13,031 nt of DNA, from IMG/VR virus record IMGVR_UViG_3300045988_027757. One strand, 5' to 3'. Of the stretch, positions 2,385-13,031 are shown piece by piece. The translations under genes and the position numbers were made by a program. The stretch's first letter is position 1, and every line of letters starts with the position of its first letter. Origin of the DNA: a virus. The notes under the pieces were generated by a model, which saw only the letters and a program-made list of their open reading frames with translations, was not told the DNA's origin and did not search any database.

Positions 2385-3074
2385 TTAATATACCAGCAAA
2401 CAAAAGTTTGCCCGGATGTCCGTAACGATTTTATGAACGGCGTTCTCCATTGCAAGGGTCAACTCTTTGGCAATAAGGTCTTGCGGGTCCCGTCCTGCCC
2501 GGCCCTTCTCGGTCACGGTGTCATTGTAGCCGTCGTGTAACTCCGAGACATTGTCATCGGTTGTTGTCTGATCGGTGGTGGTCGTGTCCGTGCCGCTGCT
2601 GGTAATAGTGTTCCCAGTACCGAGGGCCGTTGTGCTCCTCTCCGCAGTTTGTAATGCCCCACTGTCGAACCCCGTGACGTCCCGGGTTGTGATGTCACTG
2701 CCGTTATTATGGCCGGTGGTAGTCAGGTTAGGCGCTCTTGTGGTAGTTCCCTTCACGCCGTTAGTGCGGTTAATTGTGCCGCCGCTGGTTCCTGCATGGT
2801 CGGTGGTTCTGGTTCGGTCATCGGACGCCAAAGCGTCGTATTTAAGGCCCAGGGCCTCAGCGTACCGGGTCCAGCTCGGGAGCATGGTTTCAGAATAGAC
2901 GCCCAGTGCCCTGCGCATCGTGGGGCCGTCCGCATACAATACCTCTAATTCCAGCGTATCAAACAGTAATTGATTGCAGACATTATCTTTAGATACACTG
3001 TCGGGAACTTTCAAGTCATCGAACAGCTCCGGGTATCCCGACAGCAACCCGTTAAAGCTCAACGTTGCGTGCAT
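2385..3074 (-). CDS. Lower collar / tail tube protein (phi29 gp11 position)
   Basis: 229-aa ORF. ATG at 3074 is preceded by AGGAGGTGA. It lies directly between the connector and tailspike genes, as gp11 does in phi29. It has a long T/G/S/D-rich central segment. The call rests mainly on synteny. Confidence 0.55.
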   Translation of the reverse strand: MHATLSFNGLLSGYPELFDDLKVPDSVSKDNVCNQLLFDTLELEVLYADGPTMRRALGVYSETMLPSWTRYAEALGLKYDALASDDRTRTTDHAGTSGGTINRTNGVKGTTTRAPNLTTTGHNNGSDITTRDVTGFDSGALQTAERSTTALGTGNTITSSGTDTTTTDQTTTDDNVSELHDGYNDTVTEKGRAGRDPQDLIAKELTLAMENAVHKIVTDIRANFCLLVY

Positions 3075-3993
3075 CGTTGTTCACCTCCTGCGCCCCAGTA
3101 TCGGGCGGAAAACGCCAATCGACCCATAAAGTAGATTTGTCAATTCCAAAGAGCTTGTGTACTCGCTCACACCCATGCTGCAAGCTGTCCAACCATAGCG
3201 ACGCTTTGGCGGCTGTCTCCACGTTGTTCGAATTGACTTCGTCGGTCAGCATCCGCTCTTTCTTGCTGGTGTTTGTGTTTGGGATGCCTACTTCTGTGTC
3301 AAACAACGCTTTAATGGTTTTAAGGGCTGTTAGCAGTTCGTTGGTGATGAAGTTTCCTTTGAGGTCGGTTGCAAAGTACATCCATGGTGCTTGACCAGAT
3401 GCCCCATTTTTAGGCGCTTTGAGCAAAGAGGCATCAACAAAAACTGCGGGGTCACCCTGCATAATCGCGTCAAACATCTTTTTGAAAGATTCCGCACCCG
3501 CTTTGTCGCCTGCCGCGAACACGTAGGCAAGGCGGCTATTGATTAAATTGCTCTGGATGGTCTGGGCGGTAAGGGCCATCATGTCCCCGTAATATGCCAC
3601 AATATCCACCATACCGCGGTAATCGGGCTGCAAATTGATGATCTCGCACTGCTTCCCGATTTGCAAATAGGGGGACCCTTTGATAAAAGGGTTTGCAATG
3701 ATGGAGTGTGTGGGATTATAGAAAATGTTGATGCCGGTCAATCCCATTCGGTCATATACGAGGCCGTAGCGGTCAGTATTGAACACCGTAACACCGCCGG
3801 ACCCGAAAACAAGATATTGCAAGCGGTTACTGGGCCATGTGTCGGGGAGCGTCCAGCGGACCATAGATACCGCTTCGAGAAAGAGGTACTTGCGGAAATA
3901 GTAGGATAAGCTGTTACCCTTGGTGTTCATCACGGAGGGAGTCACCGGCGACACATGAGCGTTAATCTGCTCATAGCTGTAGGGTGCACTCAT
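3052..3993 (-). CDS. Head-tail connector (portal, upper collar), phi29 gp10-like
   Basis: 313 aa (phi29 gp10 is about 309 aa). The segment GIPNTNTSKKERMLTDEVNSNNVE matches my recollection of gp10 [24 protein letters not shown]. The AAAGGAGG RBS and an ATGA overlap with the upstream gene support the start. Confidence 0.88.
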   Translation of the reverse strand: MSAPYSYEQINAHVSPVTPSVMNTKGNSLSYYFRKYLFLEAVSMVRWTLPDTWPSNRLQYLVFGSGGVTVFNTDRYGLVYDRMGLTGINIFYNPTHSIIANPFIKGSPYLQIGKQCEIINLQPDYRGMVDIVAYYGDMMALTAQTIQSNLINSRLAYVFAAGDKAGAESFKKMFDAIMQGDPAVFVDASLLKAPKNGASGQAPWMYFATDLKGNFITNELLTALKTIKALFDTEVGIPNTNTSKKERMLTDEVNSNNVETAAKASLWLDSLQHGCERVHKLFGIDKSTLWVDWRFPPDTGAQEVNNDARNVEL

Positions 3994-4526
3994 AACAGAC
4001 GGCCTCCTTTCGCCATTTTAAACAGTAACCACACCGGCAATTTACCAGTAGGCCACGGACCCGGCCCGGGGCCAGGTCCTCCGCCGGAATCCCATTCGAC
4101 GTCCCATGTGCCGACCTGATTTGGGATTCTGATAATGCCGGACGGGTCCCTCAAGTTTCCGGCGGCGTCGGCGTACTCCCAGTGCGTGTGAATGCCCGTT
4201 GCGTTGCCGGTTTTGCCCTGCGTGCCGATAAACTGACCCTTGGAAATGGTGTCACCAACGTTCCAAATCTGCGAGGCAAAGTGAGCGGCTCGCCAGGTGG
4301 TGCCGTCGGCCATCCGTACTTTAATCATGTTTCCCCACGACTGATCACCCGAGGTACTGCCATTCCAGTGCTGCGCCACGACCACAACGCCCGCTTCTGG
4401 CGCGTATGATTTATGGTTGCCGTGTACCGTATCAATGCCCCGATGGGGACTGCCATCCGAGTACGCGGGGTAGCCTGCGGTTACCCGGATGGGGGAAACA
4501 TCCGTAATGCACTGTTTATATGTCAA
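3990..4526 (-). CDS. M23 (LytM-type) zinc metallopeptidase; tail-associated peptidoglycan hydrolase and/or lysin
   Basis: 178 aa with the M23 signatures HRGID (HxxxD) and HTHWE (HxH). It has a TTG start at 4526, 8 nt after AGGAGG. The C-terminus carries a GGGPGPGPGP linker followed by a hydrophobic/basic tail. Confidence 0.85.
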   Translation of the reverse strand: MTYKQCITDVSPIRVTAGYPAYSDGSPHRGIDTVHGNHKSYAPEAGVVVVAQHWNGSTSGDQSWGNMIKVRMADGTTWRAAHFASQIWNVGDTISKGQFIGTQGKTGNATGIHTHWEYADAAGNLRDPSGIIRIPNQVGTWDVEWDSGGGPGPGPGPWPTGKLPVWLLFKMAKGGRLL

Positions 4527-4538
4527 GATTAACGCCTC

Positions 4539-5939
4539 CTACTCATAGAAAAAACCGTTTTTGAGATAGCTTTTAACACTGTCGATCTCTGCCGCTGTGG
4601 CATTGAGCGCGATGTCTGGATCATCTACCATAATGAACCCCGGAATTGTGGACAACTGTACCCGCTTGCACAAGGGCCGTCCGTGGTCCTCATTGTTGTC
4701 GTCCACAAGAATTTTAAAGCGAGCGACCATATACGGTACCGAATCAAAAGCTATTGTAGAACCAGTGGCACCCTTACTTGCAACATCAGCATTGGTTGCT
4801 TGTGCAGCATTTAGAATACCGTTTCCAACGTCTGAGAAAGATCCCCCGGTTAATGCTGCTTGGAGACCTCCGAACGCAGCAGCAATACCCGTTTGCAGCA
4901 GTCCTCCGCCCGATGGTACATCAAATGTAATATTTGAAAGTTGAATAGGTACCCCGAGTTTAGCGGTTGTCTCGTGTACTAGCTGATTTGTATCAGTAAA
5001 CACTCGCAAGATACTGTCGCCGGTGAAAAGATCCACCTTATACTGTATAGATAATGTTGCAGCGCCCCACAATTTAGAGGCACCAAGGGGAATTACTCCA
5101 AATGGCTGCAAGAAGATAGTGTAGTCCGTGTAGGGGGAGGCATTGCAATACCCTCCACGACTTGCCGCTTGTGGGTGCTTCGGAATAGCCACACTTACAG
5201 ATTGTGTTAAATTATTATTATCTTCTCCCAAAATCCAGCACGGAATGTCTACCGACCACCACCCAACATCTACACTAGAAACAAGCGGTAAATGTGCGGT
5301 GATTTTGGCAATACTGAATGGAAAGTAGTTACAACTTACGATATACTGATAGGGATTAAAAAGTATTTTTGTTAAACTGTCACTAATCTCCGCATTGTCT
5401 ATACTAAGGTACGACACATCGGTTAGTAATTTGGCGGAGAGTTTTTTAGCGTTTCCAGACGTCATTACTACATACGTCACCGCTCCAACCGAGTTCGCGT
5501 TTTTAGCTATGAAGCCGATAACAAAGAAGCCCCCGCTGATTGTTTCAGCGAACCCCCCTTGAAAAGCGGTTGTCACACTCTGCACTTTAGCCGTCGCCGG
5601 ATAAAGACCATCTGAAATTGTACCATCAAACCGAGCCGACGACCTCGCCACATACTCTGTAGAGTTTCCAATTTGTTCTCGATAACTCGCCAGCGTGTCA
5701 ACAGTCAGCGATGCAGTCCATAGGCCTTCAGAATACGTCCAGTTCTTAACCCAGTAGTAGCGGCTAAATGTAGGCAGATAGCAATAGTTATATCCCGTCG
5801 GGTCACTCTGTGAGGCAATCTTGATTTCGGGGTTGATAATGTTGCAGGGGGCTTTAAGGTCAATTCCAAACTCATGACCGCCGCTGGGCCGTTTTGTGCT
5901 GTTTGTGCGCTTTGCGAATTGATAAAATGTTGCTTGCAT
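4539..5939 (-). CDS. Tail knob protein, phi29 gp9-like
   Basis: 466 aa, immediately after the capsid gene as in phi29. It has a Gly/Ala-rich hydrophobic segment (GGGLLQTGIAAAFGGLQAALTGG...). The C-terminal part (GFIMVDDPDIALNATAAEIDSVKSYLKNGFF) parallels my recollection of the gp9 pore-forming loop and C-terminus ([27 protein letters not shown]). RBS is AGGAGG. Confidence 0.75.
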   Translation of the reverse strand: MQATFYQFAKRTNSTKRPSGGHEFGIDLKAPCNIINPEIKIASQSDPTGYNYCYLPTFSRYYWVKNWTYSEGLWTASLTVDTLASYREQIGNSTEYVARSSARFDGTISDGLYPATAKVQSVTTAFQGGFAETISGGFFVIGFIAKNANSVGAVTYVVMTSGNAKKLSAKLLTDVSYLSIDNAEISDSLTKILFNPYQYIVSCNYFPFSIAKITAHLPLVSSVDVGWWSVDIPCWILGEDNNNLTQSVSVAIPKHPQAASRGGYCNASPYTDYTIFLQPFGVIPLGASKLWGAATLSIQYKVDLFTGDSILRVFTDTNQLVHETTAKLGVPIQLSNITFDVPSGGGLLQTGIAAAFGGLQAALTGGSFSDVGNGILNAAQATNADVASKGATGSTIAFDSVPYMVARFKILVDDNNEDHGRPLCKRVQLSTIPGFIMVDDPDIALNATAAEIDSVKSYLKNGFFYE

Positions 5940-5950
5940 AAACGCCTCCT

Positions 5951-5984
5951 AAAAAAATAACCGGCGAGCGTACTGCCCGCCGGT
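5951..5984 (-). terminator. Rho-independent terminator after the major capsid gene
   Basis: In minus sense: ACCGGCGGGC-AGTAC-GCTCGCCGGT (10-bp stem including one G-U pair), followed by TATTTTTTT. It begins 5 nt after the TGA at 5990-5992. The RBS of the next gene follows immediately. Confidence 0.8.
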
Positions 5985-5989
5985 GCCGG

Positions 5990-7264
5990 TCAGGACTTAG
6001 AGGGGTCGGCGTCCTTGTACGTGGTGGTTTTCAGGGTGGAGGCTTTTGCCGCCTGGGTATCTTTCGGCGCAGTAACGTCTCCGGTGGTCATCAGGAAGAG
6101 CACGGCGTTCTCGGTGAAGTCATCGTACCACGTCCACCCGTAGTGATACCAGAAATTCGTATAAAGGCCACGGGCGTTCATGGGCGTAGGGACCACACGG
6201 GACAGCTTAGGATTATAGCCGATGGCATCCCAGTCCAGCAGGCACCCGAACACATTGGAGAGCTGCACTGCTGCATTCTTGGATGCCACACCGGCAGCAG
6301 TGGTCACAACAGGTGTCGCGGTAATGGTCTCGCGCTTGTCGATGTTCTGCCAGAACGTCACCTGCTCCGCGTCGCGGTATTTCAACATGTTATCGTGGAA
6401 CACCTCGGGAATCACGCGGGCGTCAATCTGGCTCTGCGTGCCACTGTACAGATAGAGGTGCTGGCGATCATACGGAGTGTGTCGCATGATGTTGTACGTC
6501 GTGCCGTCGATCGTCCAATTCTGGTGCCAATTGATGGAACGTTCCTTCATCAGGCGGGAAATATCGTTGATGCGGCCATAGGCGTATTTTGCAAAACCCG
6601 GGAAGTTCGCTTCTTTGTAGACGTCCTGCACCGTCAGTTCTGTGCCCTGCTGGGCGTTGTACTCATCAAGCAAATACACAACGCTGTGTGGGTTAGTCAC
6701 AGTCATGCCGGTCAGATGGTTGGCCATCAGGTTGTTGGCCAGGTTTCGCCGGTCTGCCTCGATCTGGTTCGACAGATGCAGCACGAACGAGGACCAGAAC
6801 TGCGCCAGTTCCTCGGGGCCTTTGAAGGCCGCTTCCATCTGGGTATCAGCCTGCGTGTACACGCGGCTGTAATTGGTCTGACCATAGTAGTTAGTTTGAA
6901 GGACTTTAGGCTTGTGGACTTCATACATATCCGCGCTTTGACCGTCCACCAGCGCCCACGCCTTGTCGGTGACGGGGTCAGTGTCGCAGAAATTGATCTT
7001 CCGCACATGGTTAGACCAGTCGTCACCCGTGACCTGCAAGCGCTTCAGGGGCGCGTCATAGGGACGGACGGCGAAAATGGTACGGCCCAGCACTTGGCTG
7101 ATCGCTTTAGTGTAGTTATCGGTGCCGGTCAGCAGAGTGGCCTGCGCCACCGAAACGAAGCTGGATGTGTCCACGATGGGCGACGTCGTTTTCTGGCCGG
7201 TTGCCATTTTGTTGATTTCGGTCAAAATTGCGGCAATATCCGCAAAATCCATGCCGAGGTGCAT
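5990..7264 (-). CDS. Major capsid protein, phi29 gp8-like (HK97 fold expected)
   Basis: 424 aa. MNARGLYTNFWYHYGWTWYDDFTENAVLFL matches my recollection of phi29 gp8 [30 protein letters not shown]. It follows the scaffold gene. RBS is AAAGGAAGTGA. Confidence 0.9.
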   Translation of the reverse strand: MHLGMDFADIAAILTEINKMATGQKTTSPIVDTSSFVSVAQATLLTGTDNYTKAISQVLGRTIFAVRPYDAPLKRLQVTGDDWSNHVRKINFCDTDPVTDKAWALVDGQSADMYEVHKPKVLQTNYYGQTNYSRVYTQADTQMEAAFKGPEELAQFWSSFVLHLSNQIEADRRNLANNLMANHLTGMTVTNPHSVVYLLDEYNAQQGTELTVQDVYKEANFPGFAKYAYGRINDISRLMKERSINWHQNWTIDGTTYNIMRHTPYDRQHLYLYSGTQSQIDARVIPEVFHDNMLKYRDAEQVTFWQNIDKRETITATPVVTTAAGVASKNAAVQLSNVFGCLLDWDAIGYNPKLSRVVPTPMNARGLYTNFWYHYGWTWYDDFTENAVLFLMTTGDVTAPKDTQAAKASTLKTTTYKDADPSKS

Positions 7265-7265
7265 A

Positions 7266-7625
7266 TCACTTCACTTCCTTTCCGTAGGTGGGGTCGATGA
7301 TTCGGGCTGTCACAGTAGCGGCATCTGCCGCCGGCTGCTGCTGGATACCAAGGCCCAGCGCGTTTGCCTGCAACGTCTGGGTCATAGTCTGCATTGCCTG
7401 GGCGTTGGTCTGCTGGCCCTGCAAAATCTCCCGCAACAGGGTTTCGAGGCCGTCATACTGCGGCGCGGGCTGCGGCGCGGGCTGCGGCACGGGCTGTAGC
7501 GCGGGCTGCGGCACGGGCTGCGGCACGGGCTGCGGCACGGGCTGCGGCACGGGCTTCTCCATAGCTTCGATCTCTGCTTTGGTGTATCCGGCCATTGCGA
7601 GGGCCGCTTTTTCACTGATTTTCAA
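7266..7625 (-). CDS. Scaffolding protein candidate with a (P-x-P-Q) repeat linker
   Basis: 119 aa, directly upstream of the capsid gene (the phi29 gp7 position). TTG start at 7625 lies 7 nt after GGAGGCG. A helical, Q/A/L-rich C-terminal half follows PVPQPVPQPVPQPVPQPALQPVPQPAPQPAPQ. Confidence 0.6.
   Translation of the reverse strand: MKISEKAALAMAGYTKAEIEAMEKPVPQPVPQPVPQPVPQPALQPVPQPAPQPAPQYDGLETLLREILQGQQTNAQAMQTMTQTLQANALGLGIQQQPAADAATVTARIIDPTYGKEVK
7458..7553. repeat. Tandem direct repeat, 8 x 12 nt, inside the scaffold gene
   Basis: ctgcggc[g/a]cggg occurs eight times with one variant unit (ctgtagcgcggg). It encodes the Pro-Gln repeat. Confidence 0.95.
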
Positions 7626-7847: not shown

Positions 7848-8006
7848 TTAGCTTTCCTTCTTGATGTCGTCCAGGGCGAGCCGCATCTCGGTAATAGCCG
7901 CAGTGTTCTCCTTGACAACGGTATTACACTGATACCACATTAGCAAAAAAGCGGCGATAGGAAACCCAACGTTAGAAATAGCCTGAATCACAGTATTAGC
8001 ATCCAT
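7848..8006 (-). CDS. Small membrane protein, BhlA/UviB-like holin candidate (52 aa, not in the ORF track)
   Basis: Hand translation gives MDANTVIQAISNVGFPIAAFLLMWYQCNTVVKENTAAITEMRLALDDIKKES. ATG at 8006 lies 5 nt after GGAGGTG, and the stop is TAA at 7848. It has one N-terminal hydrophobic helix followed by a charged helical tail. The pattern resembles BhlA-family holins (GPFAVLFCWLLFYVMKTSKERESKL, from memory). Confidence 0.5.
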   Translation of the reverse strand: MDANTVIQAISNVGFPIAAFLLMWYQCNTVVKENTAAITEMRLALDDIKKES

Positions 8007-8037
8007 TTGAGCACCTCCATATTAAATATAAATACAA

Positions 8038-8109
8038 TAATCCCAGGTTCTTGCGCTGGCTGACGCTTGCCCGCCCCTTCTGGGGGCTGCCTGTGGGCGC
8101 CTGGGATTA
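8038..8109 (-). ncRNA. GC-rich structured RNA element (candidate pRNA-like RNA or late-operon leader)
   Basis: A 10-bp helix, TAATCCCAGG (8100-8109) pairing with CCTGGGATTA (8038-8047), encloses 52 GC-rich nt. Inside is a GCCCC-CAGAA-GGGGC hairpin, plus possible CGC/GCG and GGC/GCC helices. It starts at the predicted transcription start of the promoter at 8115-8143. It is followed by AUUAUUGUAUUUAUAUUU. Confidence 0.35.
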
Positions 8110-8114
8110 ACTTT

Positions 8115-8143
8115 AATATATATCACCCGTATAAAAAAGTCAA
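8115..8143 (-). promoter_or_regulatory. Sigma-A/sigma-70-type promoter for the late (lysis and structural) block
   Basis: In minus sense: TTGACT (8138-8143), a 17-nt spacer, then TATATT (8115-8120). The -35 box overlaps the ATPase stop codon. This is the only near-consensus promoter I found inside the genome. Confidence 0.6.
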
Positions 8144-9201
8144 GTACCGCAATACTCGCGAAAGAAAATTTCATCCGAGTATCGCTCAAACTCAATTTGC
8201 CTCTGCAAATACGCGGGCCAGATATACCCATACGCGGCCCTGAATCGTTTACGCTCATAATCGCCGGTGCCGTATGTGGGCATCTCGCCGGACCGATGCC
8301 GGCACACATAGTAGAGGGGTTTACTCTTATGCTCATAGATGCAGCACCGCCCAATTTGAACAAGGGGGTAGTATTCCCGGAGGGGCCGAGATACAACAAG
8401 ACTTTTCTCCTCGGCACTGTACTGGTTTTCAATAGCGGACCTATAAAAGTCCGTTCCGGTCATGGACCTATAGAGGGCCGTATTGGCTTTCTCTTTGGCA
8501 ATAGGGCTGTCCACAAGATCAATCAAAAGAATCCCTTTATCGGCCAACAGCTTTACGCGCTCTTTCTTGCCGATCATCTTTTCGACTGTATCGGTGATTT
8601 CCCACTGCATATAATAGGGGTTTGCCATCCCTACCGCATTTGACATACAGAGAAGCGTCAAAGGCTTCTGGCCCTTAAGTTCGCGGTTACGGTTGACTGT
8701 CTCATAAATGTTGGCAAGGCCCACCCCCTCCCCCCGCCGGTAATAGTCGGACTCTTCTTTCTGGTATTCGTCCAAGATAATTATATTGGTATGGGGGCTT
8801 GAAAAACCACGGGTGCGAGCAAGAGTCACCACACTACCCACTAAGCCCGACATCTTGGCCGGTTTTATGGGAGCCCCTGTATCCGTGTAGGCTCCCGCGT
8901 TGCCCACTTCATACAGTCCCGTTATTTTGGGCAATTTGAACGGGGCGTAATGTGTTTGCAAATCATCGTTCAACGGAGACCACGGCCACATACTGGGTGA
9001 CGCGCAAATGAGTTCCGCTTGCTGCGGAGTCCTACGCAAATACAGAAATTCGTCGCCGGTCTGGTGAACGTGCTTTAGCGCCCCGTAGGTCTTGCCGGTA
9101 CCACGCCCGCCCCAGATGAAAATAATGGGGGCTCCTGTGGACAAAATGCCATCCTTTTCAGAAAAATTCGGCCAACCTTCATCGGTGTACAGTTTAATCA
9201 T
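8140..9201 (-). CDS. DNA packaging (encapsidation) ATPase, phi29 gp16-like
   Basis: 353 aa with Walker A GGRGTGKTY and Walker B IIILDE. DEFLYLRR and CMSNAVGMANPYY match my recollection of gp16 EQFIYVRR and CLSNAVSVVNPYF. The start overlaps the polymerase stop (TGATG) and follows GGAGG. Confidence 0.92.
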   Translation of the reverse strand: MIKLYTDEGWPNFSEKDGILSTGAPIIFIWGGRGTGKTYGALKHVHQTGDEFLYLRRTPQQAELICASPSMWPWSPLNDDLQTHYAPFKLPKITGLYEVGNAGAYTDTGAPIKPAKMSGLVGSVVTLARTRGFSSPHTNIIILDEYQKEESDYYRRGEGVGLANIYETVNRNRELKGQKPLTLLCMSNAVGMANPYYMQWEITDTVEKMIGKKERVKLLADKGILLIDLVDSPIAKEKANTALYRSMTGTDFYRSAIENQYSAEEKSLVVSRPLREYYPLVQIGRCCIYEHKSKPLYYVCRHRSGEMPTYGTGDYERKRFRAAYGYIWPAYLQRQIEFERYSDEIFFREYCGT

Positions 9202-11291
9202 CAGACAACCTCCATAATCTTATACCCAAGTATCTTTGCGTATTCGTCAGTGATACCCAACGTGTAGGTATTATCACAAATACACAGGTTTCTTGTTATA
9301 TGTACCGTATGACCGTCAACCACAAAATCGGGCACATTGGGCCGGTCATTATAAATAACCTGATTTCCGGCGGCAAGACAGAACGTAAAGCCGGGCTTGA
9401 ATACCTCAAAACCACCCCATAGGGCCAGCTCCAAACCGCCTTTCCGCTTGCTAACTCCTGCTATGGTAGTAGTAATCGGCCCGCCTTTTTTATAGGTAGT
9501 AGCGTATTTCTTAGCGCCCCACGTCATAAACTCCGCGTAGCTGCGCTCTTGCTCATAAACGCCCATGTAATGAGTATTGCCTTTGGGGTCTGTAGCGCAA
9601 GCACCGTTGTCTTTTGCAAGCTGTTTCACAGATTTGTTAAACTCCGCTAAATCAATATTACCCATGTATTTGACGCTGTCCGTGTCGCAGTACACGCCAT
9701 TTTTGCCCGCGGCCCATTGCGCTATTTTTAGGCGCTTGCGGGTGTGAGCGGTTGTCCATACGCCCCATTGATACGGTAGGAACAAATGGGGGCGGTGGTC
9801 GTTATAACTGCCCTCCGGGTCGTCGGTGCATTCGCTCCACAGATCGTCGGGGTCGTCCTCGTCAAAAAGTGTGTCCAGCTGCAAGGGGTCCTGTGCTGTC
9901 ATGCCGTAGTAGCTATTGAGATCGCCCTTGGCTTTGACATAATACAAATCTTGACCGGCTACACCTTTAAGAGATGTTTTGCCGGTGTAACTCTCTTTTA
10001 CACAATCCGTCAAGGGCTTTGGCAGTTTGTCATAATCGGACGTCCAGAGGTCCAGAACGTTAAGGGCGTCCCAATCATATTCTTTGGCAATGATTCTAAA
10101 ATCTATATCTGTTATGGTGATCTCGAAATGTTCAGCAGACAGCAAACGACCATTGTCGTTAATGTATCCTTCACAGTGCCGGACTTTCGCAAGCGGGATA
10201 TAGGGAAACCCCCACCACTTAAACCGCTGGCGCAAACCTTTTACTTGCAAGCGCATCAAGCACGCCTTGCCGTGCCTCATACATTGCATCAGCCGCACGA
10301 CGGTGGCCGGTTCCTGCTTAAATGGAGTCATAGGAAAATAACATTCACATTGTACGGCGGGGTACGCACTCGACATATCCACGGAACCGACGTTTTCTAG
10401 GTGCAAACCCACATAATAGCGGTTGGCGTGAGTGTCACCACCTCGGAAAGCCTCCCGCAGCATCTGGTAAAGGTCCCATGACGGAAGCAACCTCTTGACC
10501 CGTTTAATGCCCCATTCGTACATGGCCGAGCGTGCCATTCGTCTGACGTAACCAGTGCGCGTCAGTGGCAATGAATACAGGTCGTCGCCGTCTCGCTTCA
10601 TCTCAATTAACAAGCACTCCACAATACAGCGAACATCGTTGATACAATACGCTAATTCTGTAGACGTTAAGGGAGTCCATGGATAACGAACCTTTGAATA
10701 ATCAAGTGCCCCGGTCAATTTGGCATGAGGGGCACCCAACTGTTTGCCCCATGCGTCAAGGGACAAATTGCTATGGCGCATACTGCATCGATATTCAATA
10801 GCGCGGTTGTCGCATTTTAAGACCCTTCGGGGCTTGCTGGCGAATACGTCGCCGGGGCCAAAATCCAGAACCCCCGACAGATATTGGAATTCGTGAGCGA
10901 GATTATGGACGTACATACACAGAAACCAGTCACCCTGCGGGCCGCTGTTTGCTTGCAAATAGTCGCTGATTGCTCCCGTAAAGTTCAGCCACTCGTCCCA
11001 CGTCCTACCAATAATGGTAATATCCAGACCAAGTTGACACTGCCAAATATACATTATGGTGTGTGGATTGTCGTCCGCATCTACACATACTCGGCTAGTC
11101 TCGATATCAAACGCACATGGGGCATTAACGTACAAGCGTTTCTTATTTGTTTTGCGTTTTTTGCCTTTGGTGTGCTTTCTGTCCAAATGCTCCATGAGCC
11201 ACGGGACAGGGTTATAATTACAAGCCTCCGCCAAAACCTCCGCGCAGGTCGGCGGAACTGCTGCCGTCACTGTAGTCCCATTCTTTGCCAT
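9201..11291 (-). CDS. Family-B DNA polymerase, protein-primed type (phi29 gp2-like)
   Basis: Motifs present: ExoI AFDIETS, ExoII YVHNLAHEF, ExoIII YCINDVRCIVE, motif A VDMSSAYP, motif B KGDLNSYYG, motif C YCDTDS (9675-9692) and KxY GAKKYA. Long insertions lie between motifs A/B and B/C, where the TPR1 and TPR2 insertions sit in phi29. The track ORF starts at GTG 11303. I prefer ATG 11291 because AAGGTGAGG lies 6 nt upstream of it. Confidence 0.95.
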   Translation of the reverse strand: MAKNGTTVTAAVPPTCAEVLAEACNYNPVPWLMEHLDRKHTKGKKRKTNKKRLYVNAPCAFDIETSRVCVDADDNPHTIMYIWQCQLGLDITIIGRTWDEWLNFTGAISDYLQANSGPQGDWFLCMYVHNLAHEFQYLSGVLDFGPGDVFASKPRRVLKCDNRAIEYRCSMRHSNLSLDAWGKQLGAPHAKLTGALDYSKVRYPWTPLTSTELAYCINDVRCIVECLLIEMKRDGDDLYSLPLTRTGYVRRMARSAMYEWGIKRVKRLLPSWDLYQMLREAFRGGDTHANRYYVGLHLENVGSVDMSSAYPAVQCECYFPMTPFKQEPATVVRLMQCMRHGKACLMRLQVKGLRQRFKWWGFPYIPLAKVRHCEGYINDNGRLLSAEHFEITITDIDFRIIAKEYDWDALNVLDLWTSDYDKLPKPLTDCVKESYTGKTSLKGVAGQDLYYVKAKGDLNSYYGMTAQDPLQLDTLFDEDDPDDLWSECTDDPEGSYNDHRPHLFLPYQWGVWTTAHTRKRLKIAQWAAGKNGVYCDTDSVKYMGNIDLAEFNKSVKQLAKDNGACATDPKGNTHYMGVYEQERSYAEFMTWGAKKYATTYKKGGPITTTIAGVSKRKGGLELALWGGFEVFKPGFTFCLAAGNQVIYNDRPNVPDFVVDGHTVHITRNLCICDNTYTLGITDEYAKILGYKIMEVV

Positions 11292-11817
11292 AGTTGACCT
11301 CACCTTGCTGCCACTTTACAAAATCGTCAATACTGACATTGTAGCCGCCTTTCTCGCGCCAGTACATAACCGGCTGGTCGGACGGATAATAGTACACTCC
11401 CGTTGCCTTTACGATCTCCCACCACTCAGACAGGGCCGTGTATTGATCTTCCGGCACATCGGCAATGTCAATACCACCAACTTTCATTTTTTGCTCAAAT
11501 TTTGCCCGCGCACCGCCAACAGTGGAGCCTTTGGAGCGCACAAAACGCGCTACATCCGCAAGGGCCTGTTCCAATGCTTTGCGGTCTCCCCGCATTGCTT
11601 TCAGGGTAGGGAAACCTCCGGCAAATTCTTTATAAACATCGCTGGTGCCGCTGATGGGGTCTTTTGATAATCGCTTGATACGTTTCTGCGCAATGTCACG
11701 TAGTCGGGTGTACTCTTTACGCATCTGCTTATCGGGCCAAGACTCCAAGGCGTAGGGGGTGTACAGCTCGGAGCTGTATTTTAGGGTTGCACTTGCTTTA
11801 GCTGCGCCTGCTGCCAT
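11218..11817 (-). CDS. Terminal protein candidate (primer for DNA replication)
   Basis: 199 aa, immediately upstream of and overlapping the polymerase gene, which is the phi29 gene 3 / gene 2 arrangement. KEYTRLRDIAQKRIKRL resembles my recollection of the phi29 TP N-terminus AEYARLVKNTKAKIARTKKKY. The Ser/Tyr-rich C-terminus (WDYSDGSSSADL) could hold the priming residue. Confidence 0.6.
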   Translation of the reverse strand: MAAGAAKASATLKYSSELYTPYALESWPDKQMRKEYTRLRDIAQKRIKRLSKDPISGTSDVYKEFAGGFPTLKAMRGDRKALEQALADVARFVRSKGSTVGGARAKFEQKMKVGGIDIADVPEDQYTALSEWWEIVKATGVYYYPSDQPVMYWREKGGYNVSIDDFVKWQQGEVNYGKEWDYSDGSSSADLRGGFGGGL

Positions 11818-12040: not shown

Positions 12041-12068
12041 AATAAATAAGGGCGGCCATAGGCCGCCC
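12041..12068 (-). terminator. Rho-independent terminator inside the early operon
   Basis: In minus sense: GGGCGGCC-TAT-GGCCGCCC (8-bp all-GC stem, 12050-12068), followed by TTATTTATTAT. It lies 5 nt after the TAA at 12074-12076. Confidence 0.7.
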
Positions 12069-12932: not shown

Positions 12933-12961
12933 ATTGTATATGTTGCTATTTACATTGTAAA
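12933..12961 (-). promoter_or_regulatory. ITR-embedded promoter-like element, right copy, pointing at the early genes
   Basis: In minus sense: TTTACA, a 17-nt spacer, then TACAAT ending exactly at the inner ITR boundary. It is in tandem with the extended -10 element 8 nt further downstream. Confidence 0.45.
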
Positions 12962-13031
12962 AATTGCTGTACTCCCCTACCCTACCGAGTGCAGAGGGAG
13001 GGATTTTTCTTATAGGTATGTTAGCAATGAC
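12933..13031. repeat. Right inverted terminal repeat (99 bp)
   Basis: Exact reverse complement of bases 1-99. Confidence 0.95.

Follow-up and report, generated by a model that had tools for sequence, protein, structure and literature searches.

What occupies the non-coding gap between the packaging ATPase gene and a small holin-like gene in the 13,031-bp phage genome of IMG/VR virus record IMGVR_UViG_3300045988_027757 (hereafter the window)? An original prediction, made from these letters, placed a GC-rich structured RNA directly behind a promoter in this gap and read it either as a relative of the prohead RNA (pRNA) of the phi29 packaging motor or as a developmental leader. pRNA is known from Bacillus phages of the Salasmaviridae, and to our knowledge no other RNA serves as an essential structural component of the motor that packages viral DNA. 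Comparison of the gap across related phages indicates a real, strongly covarying RNA family that is undescribed in Rfam and in the literature consulted. By its covarying helices, the family has the layout of phi29 pRNA in miniature, including the hallmark complementarity between a bulge and a hairpin loop. We lean towards reading it as a mini pRNA, copies of which would assemble into a ring through bulge-to-loop pairing and, in that form, dock the ATPase at the portal.

The gap (8007–8139, 133 bp) was found as predicted between the ATPase open reading frame (ORF) and a 52-amino-acid (aa) ORF, in a genome in which all genes lie on the minus strand. The near-consensus promoter that had been proposed is also there: TTGACT-17-TATATT (8143–8115 minus) matches 10 of 12 consensus positions, TTGAC is present in all close relatives, and the TGA stop codon of the ATPase gene (8142–8140) sits within the −35 hexamer. 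The expected transcription start, at ~8109–8107, falls on the first bases of a 10-bp helix (P1, 8109–8100/8047–8038), bearing out the suggested coincidence of start and helix. The 72-nucleotide (nt) core closed by P1 (8109–8038 minus) folds at −34.4 kcal/mol (z = −4.12), and none of 200 shuffled sequences is as stable; the full 146 nt with flanks give an unremarkable fold (z = −1.56). As modelled from the family alignment, the window RNA is a three-way junction closed by P1, with one arm composed of P2, a bulge and P3 and the other of P4 (Table 1). The branched, GC-rich fold with paired ends expected from the original prediction thus survives in its stable core and its covarying P1, and the hairpin GCCCC-CAGAA-GGGGC is present as P3 of the family, but the interior differs, being built from P2 and P4. 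The minimum-energy hairpin GCC-CACA-GGC was rejected for P2 (GCCC/GGGC), since only P2 covaries. Within this fold, GGC of the bulge (8091–8089) is complementary to GCC of the P4 loop (8060–8058).

The extent of the family was assessed in a close set of 80 IMG/VR relatives with ATPases 96–99% identical, and in a distant set comprising contig look-ups (ATPase homologues 38–76% identical) and 80 diverse loci from a protein-alignment-driven search. A descriptor scanner in which bulge–loop pairing was not required also hit reverse-complement (49/80 loci) and shuffled sequence (35/80) at low scores. Its hits were kept at scores of at least 18.5 with a CNGAA or GGGA loop (one CGAAA variant passed) and were confirmed independently by a covariance model, R1, made from 18 gapless seeds with nested helices only and with the window group excluded. 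The motif adjoins a gp16-type ATPase gene in ~275 fetched loci. In 80 of 91 sources R1 returns exactly one match per locus, and this invariably lies on the sense strand, immediately 3′ of the ATPase gene; in the 13-kb window it finds a single site (8042–8105 minus, 35.9 bits, E = 2.3e-9). ATPase identity falls to 27–29% in the most distant carriers, which include three uncultured human-faecal phage contigs and Amedibacillus phage AD70P3. At two loci an element was not evident: Streptococcus phage Cp-1 gave low-quality scanner hits only and no convincing element, and MT835998 (L294) has a plain terminator hairpin after the ATPase gene and no clear element.

An exact-pattern search of viral contigs with the core sequence recovered near-identical phages only, and single-protein locus searches of viral contigs gave one locus for P0007 and none for P0011. 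Rfam 15, scanned at E ≤ 10 over the whole window and over 7990–8160 alone, assigned no family to the element, the best scores over it being 13–14 bits against thresholds of 45–98. ARAGORN found no tRNA or tmRNA in the window, and a coding explanation was rejected on the grounds that lengths differ between lineages by non-multiples of three and that substitutions are paired.

In the close set the interior of the element is nearly invariant, and the promoter spacer and leader are variable. Compensatory substitutions were found here in both P1 and P3: CCCAGG/CCUGGG in P1 becomes CCCCGG/CCGGGG, CCUCGG/CCGAGG or CUCAGG/CCUGAG, and one close relative (L003) carries GCUCC/GGAGC in P3. Distant loci have the same architecture in wholly different sequence, with a post-ATPase gap of ~95–200 nt (mostly ~130) and an RNA of 63–80 nt. 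Over the 18 seeds, 99.3% of cells are paired and the covariation score is 0.874, compared with 0.195 in shuffles (0/500 reach it). The larger alignment, A3, was built by R1 and carries no bulge–loop pairing information; 93.5% of its cells are paired, its score is 0.838 as against 0.178 when shuffled (again 0/500), and sliding the partners lowers it to 0.05–0.12. All four helices and the bulge–loop pairing covary, with both-sided changes in A3 at all 7 scored pairs of P1 and 32 and 37 double changes in the two inner pairs of P2. G–U pairs in A3 have a fixed orientation, and this strand specificity assigns the structure to the sense-strand RNA rather than to double-stranded DNA.

In A3 the bulge–loop helix is itself 77.6% paired, with double changes (20, 29 and 25) at three of its pairs. 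At least three Watson–Crick pairs can form between bulge and loop in 79 of 80 distinct interiors and at least four in 47 of 80, while only ~6% of non-cognate bulge–loop combinations reach four. There are 26 distinct variants (e.g. UAGC/GCUA, GAGC/GCUC, AGUC/GACU, GACC/GGUC and GAAAC/GUUUC), and one sub-lineage combines three different quartets with otherwise identical helices. On this covariation the pairing is real.

A known RNA with this topology is phi29 pRNA, which we took as reference by reading the RF00044 consensus on phi29 itself (145 bits). Its order is helix A, 1 nt, a 9-bp helix C, a 9-nt bulge confined to the 5′ side, a 4-bp helix E with a 6-nt loop, UUU, a 6-bp helix D with a 5-nt loop and, after 0 nt, the return strand of helix A. 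Both RNAs occur in phages that replicate by protein priming and encode a gp16 ATPase and a gp10 connector. In both, a terminal helix pairs the 5′ and 3′ ends and closes a three-way junction. One arm bulges on its 5′ side alone (by 9 nt in phi29 and by 7–8 nt here), has 0–1 nt opposite and ends in a capping hairpin of 4–5 bp. A junction of 2–3 nt then leads to a second hairpin, whose loop is Watson–Crick complementary to the last 4 nt of the bulge and covaries with it. Each RNA also has its own promoter with a start at the terminal helix, promoter A1 of phi29 starting at helix A. The gp16 ATPase, gp10 connector, phi29-type capsid protein and type B polymerase identified in the window (Table 1) mark its genome as a small phi29-like podophage, and its ATPase matches the phi29 gp16 structures (PDB chains 7jqq_A and 5hd9_A).

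The differences are largely of size and setting. Family members measure 63–80 nt as opposed to 120 nt (functional) or 174 nt (full transcript) for pRNA, which puts the 72-nt window RNA at ~60% of the functional pRNA. The terminal helix has 7–17 unbulged bp, compared with ~24 bp with bulges in phi29; the helix C counterpart has 4 bp rather than 9; and the helix D counterpart has 4–5 bp with a 7-nt loop rather than 6 bp with a 5-nt loop. The RNA gene adjoins the ATPase gene and heads the late operon, whereas the pRNA gene of phi29 stands at the genome end with its own terminator, and the hosts are not Bacillus. pRNA has been described as unique to phi29 and related Bacillus phages in a 2024 review (PMC11476376); a 2025 survey reported 12 more, recognised by a three-way junction, covarying paired loops and gp10 and gp16 in the genome (PMC12670572). 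Folding, self-association and binding to the motor are reported for a pRNA core of ~75 nt (PMC4201828).

Several of these features, together with others, weigh against a mini pRNA. P1 of the window has 10 bp and no bulge, and it is the long bulged helix A that docks the ATPase in phi29; the junction linkers are 0–1, 2 and 4 nt instead of 1, 3 and 0 nt. The predicted link to pRNA did not extend to an Rfam match, as RF00044 hits neither the window nor 7990–8160 alone at E ≤ 10, nor relatives at E ≤ 1, and R1 in turn gave no hit on phi29. With neither model finding the other's RNA, the resemblance is architectural and is not demonstrable at the sequence level. The span per subunit would be ~75–80% of that in phi29, probably making a five- or six-copy ring on a similarly sized connector tight. 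The window connector begins MSAPYSYEQ... and has no basic cluster at its N-terminus, where its phi29 gp10 counterpart binds pRNA through a basic RKR cluster. In the window group the bulge–loop pairing comprises just 3 bp (GGC/GCC) and is invariant. P2 (4 bp) and P4 (4–5 bp) are of equal height, and on geometric reasoning this makes bulge–loop pairing feasible within one molecule. On the same reasoning an intramolecular pseudoknot is feasible: the P4-loop linkers are of kissing type (1–2 nt 5′, 1 nt 3′), and P2 could pack beside a P4–pseudoknot–P3 stack. Between the RNA and the next gene, a terminator is missing in most lineages and the space never suffices for a second promoter. Transcription thus yields the RNA as the 5′ end of the late mRNA, from which it must be released by partial termination or processing if it acts alone. 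Finally, the core of the P3 loop (CNGA) is complementary to a 4-mer in the leader (UCNG), 7–12 nt after P1, in 40–47% of contexts. Of the readings that we weighed, that of the original prediction as a pRNA-like RNA nevertheless remains the best supported, by the phi29-type motor genes and the shared covarying topology, although RF00044 does not match and the RNA has only ~60% of the size.

A second reading, which we regard as possible but distinctly less probable, is that the element is a cis-acting 5′ leader in which bulge and loop form an intramolecular pseudoknot, giving the late mRNA a compact domain at its extreme 5′ end. Such a domain would shield the transcript from 5′-end-dependent RNases, and might also be the binding site of a phage or host factor controlling either translation of the first, holin-like gene or read-through into the late genes. 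The element is indeed always promoter-proximal, with the start at P1, the Shine-Dalgarno of the next gene directly after it and mostly no terminator between. In other lineages a promoter-like site with a TTGACA-like hexamer precedes it in 71 of 77 distinct contexts (9–12 of 12 consensus positions), and the −10 hexamer ends 4–9 nt (mode 6) upstream of the first base of P1; given this narrow range of distances, the RNA 5′ end coincides with the start of P1 family-wide. Equal P2 and P4 lengths with 2- and 4-nt linkers would permit the side-by-side packing described above, and the conservation of the junction nucleotides (AA, A-N, A-A/U-G-A) and of the CNGAA loop resembles that of compact tertiary folds. 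On the other hand, an elaborate architecture that persists at 27% ATPase identity is more than a stabilising 5′ hairpin would need, neither alternative (switching) pairings nor an expression platform was seen, and a leader would leave the coincidence of pRNA topology with a phi29-like genome unexplained.

The match between P3 loop and leader sequence speaks for a role in cis, CAGA being accompanied by UCUG in 43 of 92 contexts (control 4-mers 0/92) and CGGA by UCCG in 23 of 61 (control 4-mers 3–4/61), with examples in window-group loci at ~4170–4200 (e.g. L018) and in other lineages (e.g. L222, ~1727–1735). It is absent, though, from more than half of the contexts, including the window, which lacks a UCNG 4-mer in its leader. 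The match could be a cis contact near the Shine-Dalgarno or could reflect shared descent. Against the leader reading, phages with ATPases 96–99% identical have one of three unrelated small ORFs as the first gene after the RNA (starting MDANTVIQ..., MNVYAVLA... or MYGCAVYA...; L002–L081, ~4195–4215) with promoter and RNA unchanged, a pattern that suggests module swapping at the junction between RNA and downstream gene. The U-rich tract that had been predicted after the helix occurs in some lineages, and only there could it act as a terminator: the first 6 nt after P1 contain 2–5 T, mostly 3–4, in the window group and 0–5 T in the contexts of other lineages. A terminator scan limited to loops of 3–8 nt reported none at the window element; one lineage has a GC-rich hairpin followed by UUUUAUU right after the element, which the scan did not flag because its loop is 11 nt.

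Other motifs were seen in the same stretch of leader. In one lineage (L207, L208, L213–L217) the near-palindrome UUGUAUACAAGUAUACA is kept ~20–40 nt after the element, before the Shine-Dalgarno, and a shorter motif, UUGUA, is found again downstream of P1 in several further lineages, that of the window (8037–8033) among them; either may be an operator or a processing site.

Points of comparison are also offered by HK022 put and other promoter-proximal antitermination elements of nascent RNA; put consists of two stem-loops and is known in lambdoid phages of E. coli. Shared with put are a structured RNA of ~70 nt directly downstream of a phage promoter and its position at the head of a long operon with internal terminators, represented here by the terminator-like site after the capsid gene (5984–5960). 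The two stem-loops of put differ from the closed three-way junction with bulge–loop pairing found here.

Cultured relatives, found by tblastn of phage records, bear on whether bulge and loop pair within or between molecules. Amedibacillus phage AD70P3 (OP172639; Guelinviridae) carries the mini element after its ATPase gene, with the bulge–loop combination UAUCC/GGAUA. Clostridium phages CI55P1 (OP172759) and CI461P1 instead have an RNA of ~110 nt between the polymerase and ATPase genes (L300, CI55P1, 4764–4872; also L299, CI461P1, and L303–L315), unannotated in both records and preceded directly by the promoter TTTACA-17-TACAAT in the CI55P1-type gap. This RNA has in common with the mini element its genome type, its adjacency to the ATPase gene, the upstream promoter and a capping hairpin after a 5′-side bulge. 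It differs in lying upstream of the ATPase gene, in its length, in having an E loop of UAAC rather than CNGAA and in lacking a D–A linker. In this last point, as in its 23-bp bulged helix A, 10-bp helix C and 3-bp helix D, it is like phi29 pRNA. Its bulge–loop pair, UACCA/UGGUA, has the format of the mini family (A-NNNC-A with Y-U-G-NNN-R), and 13 relatives show compensatory changes in helices A, C and D. From its sequence and fold, the ~110-nt form has phi29 dimensions and links the mini element to classical pRNA.

In the CI55P1-type RNA, 10 bp separate the bulge from the junction and 3 bp separate the loop from it. Because of these unequal distances, pairing within one molecule appears implausible in the modelled fold, which points to pairing between molecules; the arms of MT835901-type relatives are also unequal (~6 bp and ~2 bp). 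Such arms fit a leader with an intramolecular pseudoknot less well than they fit intermolecular pairing. A leader does gain from the Clostridium phage RNA in another respect, as this RNA also heads an operon, there starting with the ATPase gene.

That the element is a new ligand-sensing riboswitch, or a self-cleaving ribozyme by which read-through transcripts are processed where early and late genes meet, we consider improbable. The compact, pseudoknotted three-way junction with near-invariant junction nucleotides would suit either, the same genomes carry a conserved type II hammerhead in their early region and hence use RNA self-processing, and early transcripts can read through into the element, the ATPase stop lying inside the −35 hexamer with no terminator ahead of the promoter. 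Purine and tetrahydrofolate (THF) riboswitches have pseudoknotted three-way-junction aptamers held by bulge–loop or loop–loop contacts, and they resemble the element in that P1 closes the fold and two arms of comparable length are joined by a long-range tertiary pairing. Unlike them, however, the element has no Rfam riboswitch match, even at E ≤ 10 on the isolated region, and no expression platform, and it is restricted to phi29-like phages, beside the ATPase gene. A promoter starting at P1 makes 5′ processing unnecessary, and a P2 that varies from 4 to 10 bp would be unusual for a catalytic core.

The original prediction had further raised an outer A/T helix (8112–8119 with 8019–8026), formed in read-through transcripts only, that would mask the holin ribosome-binding region or make an RNase III site. 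The 8-bp complementarity (AUAUUAAA/UUUAAUAU) is present in the window, but in only 6 of 107 distinct window-group contexts; the longest run is usually 4–5 bp, a length to be expected of A/T-rich flanks. The upstream arm of the helix coincides with the −10 region, conserved for promoter reasons, and the downstream leader is replaced in most relatives, and we regard such a switch as very unlikely indeed.

In the mini pRNA reading that we favour, 8109–8038 minus would be a small structured RNA gene with its own strong sigma-70-type promoter, the first transcribed bases of which already form the closing helix P1. Its release from the late-gene transcript would come about through partial termination at the U-rich tract that follows P1, or through a nuclease cut in the A/U-rich leader. 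Copies would then pair bulge-to-loop between molecules into a ring on the portal vertex of the prohead, where P1 and the junction would dock the gp16-type ATPase for packaging of the protein-primed genome.

Table 1 Features of the window, with the dimensions of the RNA family and of the CI55P1-type RNA. Positions are those of the window; ~ marks the proposed pRNA counterpart.
Feature	Position	Strand	Evidence or description
−35 hexamer TTGACT	8138..8143	minus	TTGAC kept in all close relatives
−10 hexamer TATATT	8115..8120	minus	promoter match
P1 5′ strand UAAUCCCAGG (~ helix A), 10 bp	8100..8109	minus	covaries
Linker C between P1 and P2, 1 nt	8099	minus	fold
P2 5′ strand GCCC (~ helix C)	8095..8098	minus	100% paired in alignment
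Bulge ACAGGCA, 5′ side only, 7 nt (~ CE loop)	8088..8094	minus	complementary to P4 loop
P3 hairpin GCCCC-CAGAA-GGGGC (~ helix E)	8073..8087	minus	CNGAA pentaloop kept family-wide
P2 3′ strand GGGC, directly after P3, 0 nt opposite bulge	8069..8072	minus	covaries
Junction AA, P2 to P4	8067..8068	minus	family alignment
P4 hairpin GCGU-CAGCCA-GCGC (~ helix D)	8053..8066	minus	conserved
Junction AAGAA, P4 to P1 (family consensus A-A/U-G-A)	8048..8052	minus	family alignment
P1 3′ strand CCUGGGAUUA	8038..8047	minus	covaries
A/U-rich leader (8037–8019) and Shine-Dalgarno GGAGG (8018–8014) of the 52-aa gene	8014..8037	minus	sequence
Type B DNA polymerase, protein-primed	9201–11303	minus	Pfam/PHROGs
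Packaging ATPase, gp16 family	8140–9201	minus	PF05894, 55.8 bits (cut-off 25)
Holin-like protein, 52 aa, first gene of downstream operon	7848–8006	minus	phrog_4898 holin, E = 1.8e-6
Major capsid protein, phi29-type (Phi29_MCP)	5990–7264	minus	64.1 bits
Connector, gp10-type	3052–3993	minus	PF05352, 59.8 bits
Family P1			7–17 bp, then 0–1-nt linker
Family P2			4 bp, G-N-N-C
Family bulge			5′ side only, A(A)-NNNN-A, 7–8 nt, 0–1 nt opposite
Family P3			4–5 bp, CNGAA pentaloop, then 0–1 nt before P2 return strand
Family junction P2–P4			2 nt
Family P4			4–5 bp, 6–7-nt loop Y-N-G-NNN-R
Family junction P4–P1			A-A/U-G-A, then P1 return strand
CI55P1-type helix A			23 bp with bulges; minimum-energy fold
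CI55P1-type helix C			10 bp
CI55P1-type bulge			AUACCA, 6 nt, 5′ side only
CI55P1-type helix E			5 bp, loop UAAC
CI55P1-type junction			UU
CI55P1-type helix D			3 bp, loop CUGGUAA (7 nt), no linker to helix A, U-rich tail follows

The window is a complete linear genome with perfect inverted terminal repeats of 99 bp (1–99 and 12933–13031), and its sole relative among phage records is an unannotated 13-kb contig from human faeces. The repeats contain promoter-like sites (TTTACA-17-TACAAT) that point inwards (71–99 plus and 12961–12933 minus); the one at the left end points into the antisense of the 746-aa tail gene, and the hairpin at 103–124 follows directly. This hairpin, at the end of the tail operon, is one of three strong terminator-like hairpins with T-runs on the minus strand, the others lying after the major capsid gene (5960–5984; 10 pairs, 8 of them G–C) and in the early region after a 76-aa ORF (12050–12068). 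The early region also contains, ~600 nt from the right end, the type II hammerhead ribozyme (RF02276, 12388–12450 minus; full model, 44.3 bits with a gathering score of 37), which occupies the equivalent place in 8 of 10 related genomes scanned (39–48 bits). Just upstream of the capsid gene, a 119-aa protein (7266–7625 minus) with a run of PVPQ/PAPQ repeats occupies the position expected of a scaffolding protein; it matched no family in a scan of PHROGs, the only collection used for it. Near-identical 13-kb phage contigs (L316, L317) are binned with one Prevotella and one Collinsella metagenome-assembled genome. These contradictory host signals are probably binning artefacts, and host assignment through genome bins was set aside as uninformative.

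Taken together, we put the chance somewhat above even that the element is a prohead RNA, which would make it the first from outside Bacillus phages and the smallest so far, carried by a large, mostly uncultured clade of 12–15-kb phi29-like gut phages, with the ~110-nt Clostridium forms as a bridge to phi29. If the leader reading were true instead, the element would be a new and widespread phage 5′-leader motif with a pseudoknotted three-way junction, still undescribed. An unannotated RNA gene is also added to a common class of human-gut phages. pRNA is a workhorse of RNA nanotechnology, and the 26 natural kissing-pair variants are candidate orthogonal assembly modules. A prohead RNA of this kind would define the minimal RNA for a packaging role, at ~65 nt, and would share the late-gene promoter and double as the 5′ end of the late mRNA. 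It would also make an RNA ring an ancestral and general part of gp16-type packaging motors, and whether all such motors need one is a question that can now be tested in the cultured carriers AD70P3 and CI55P1.

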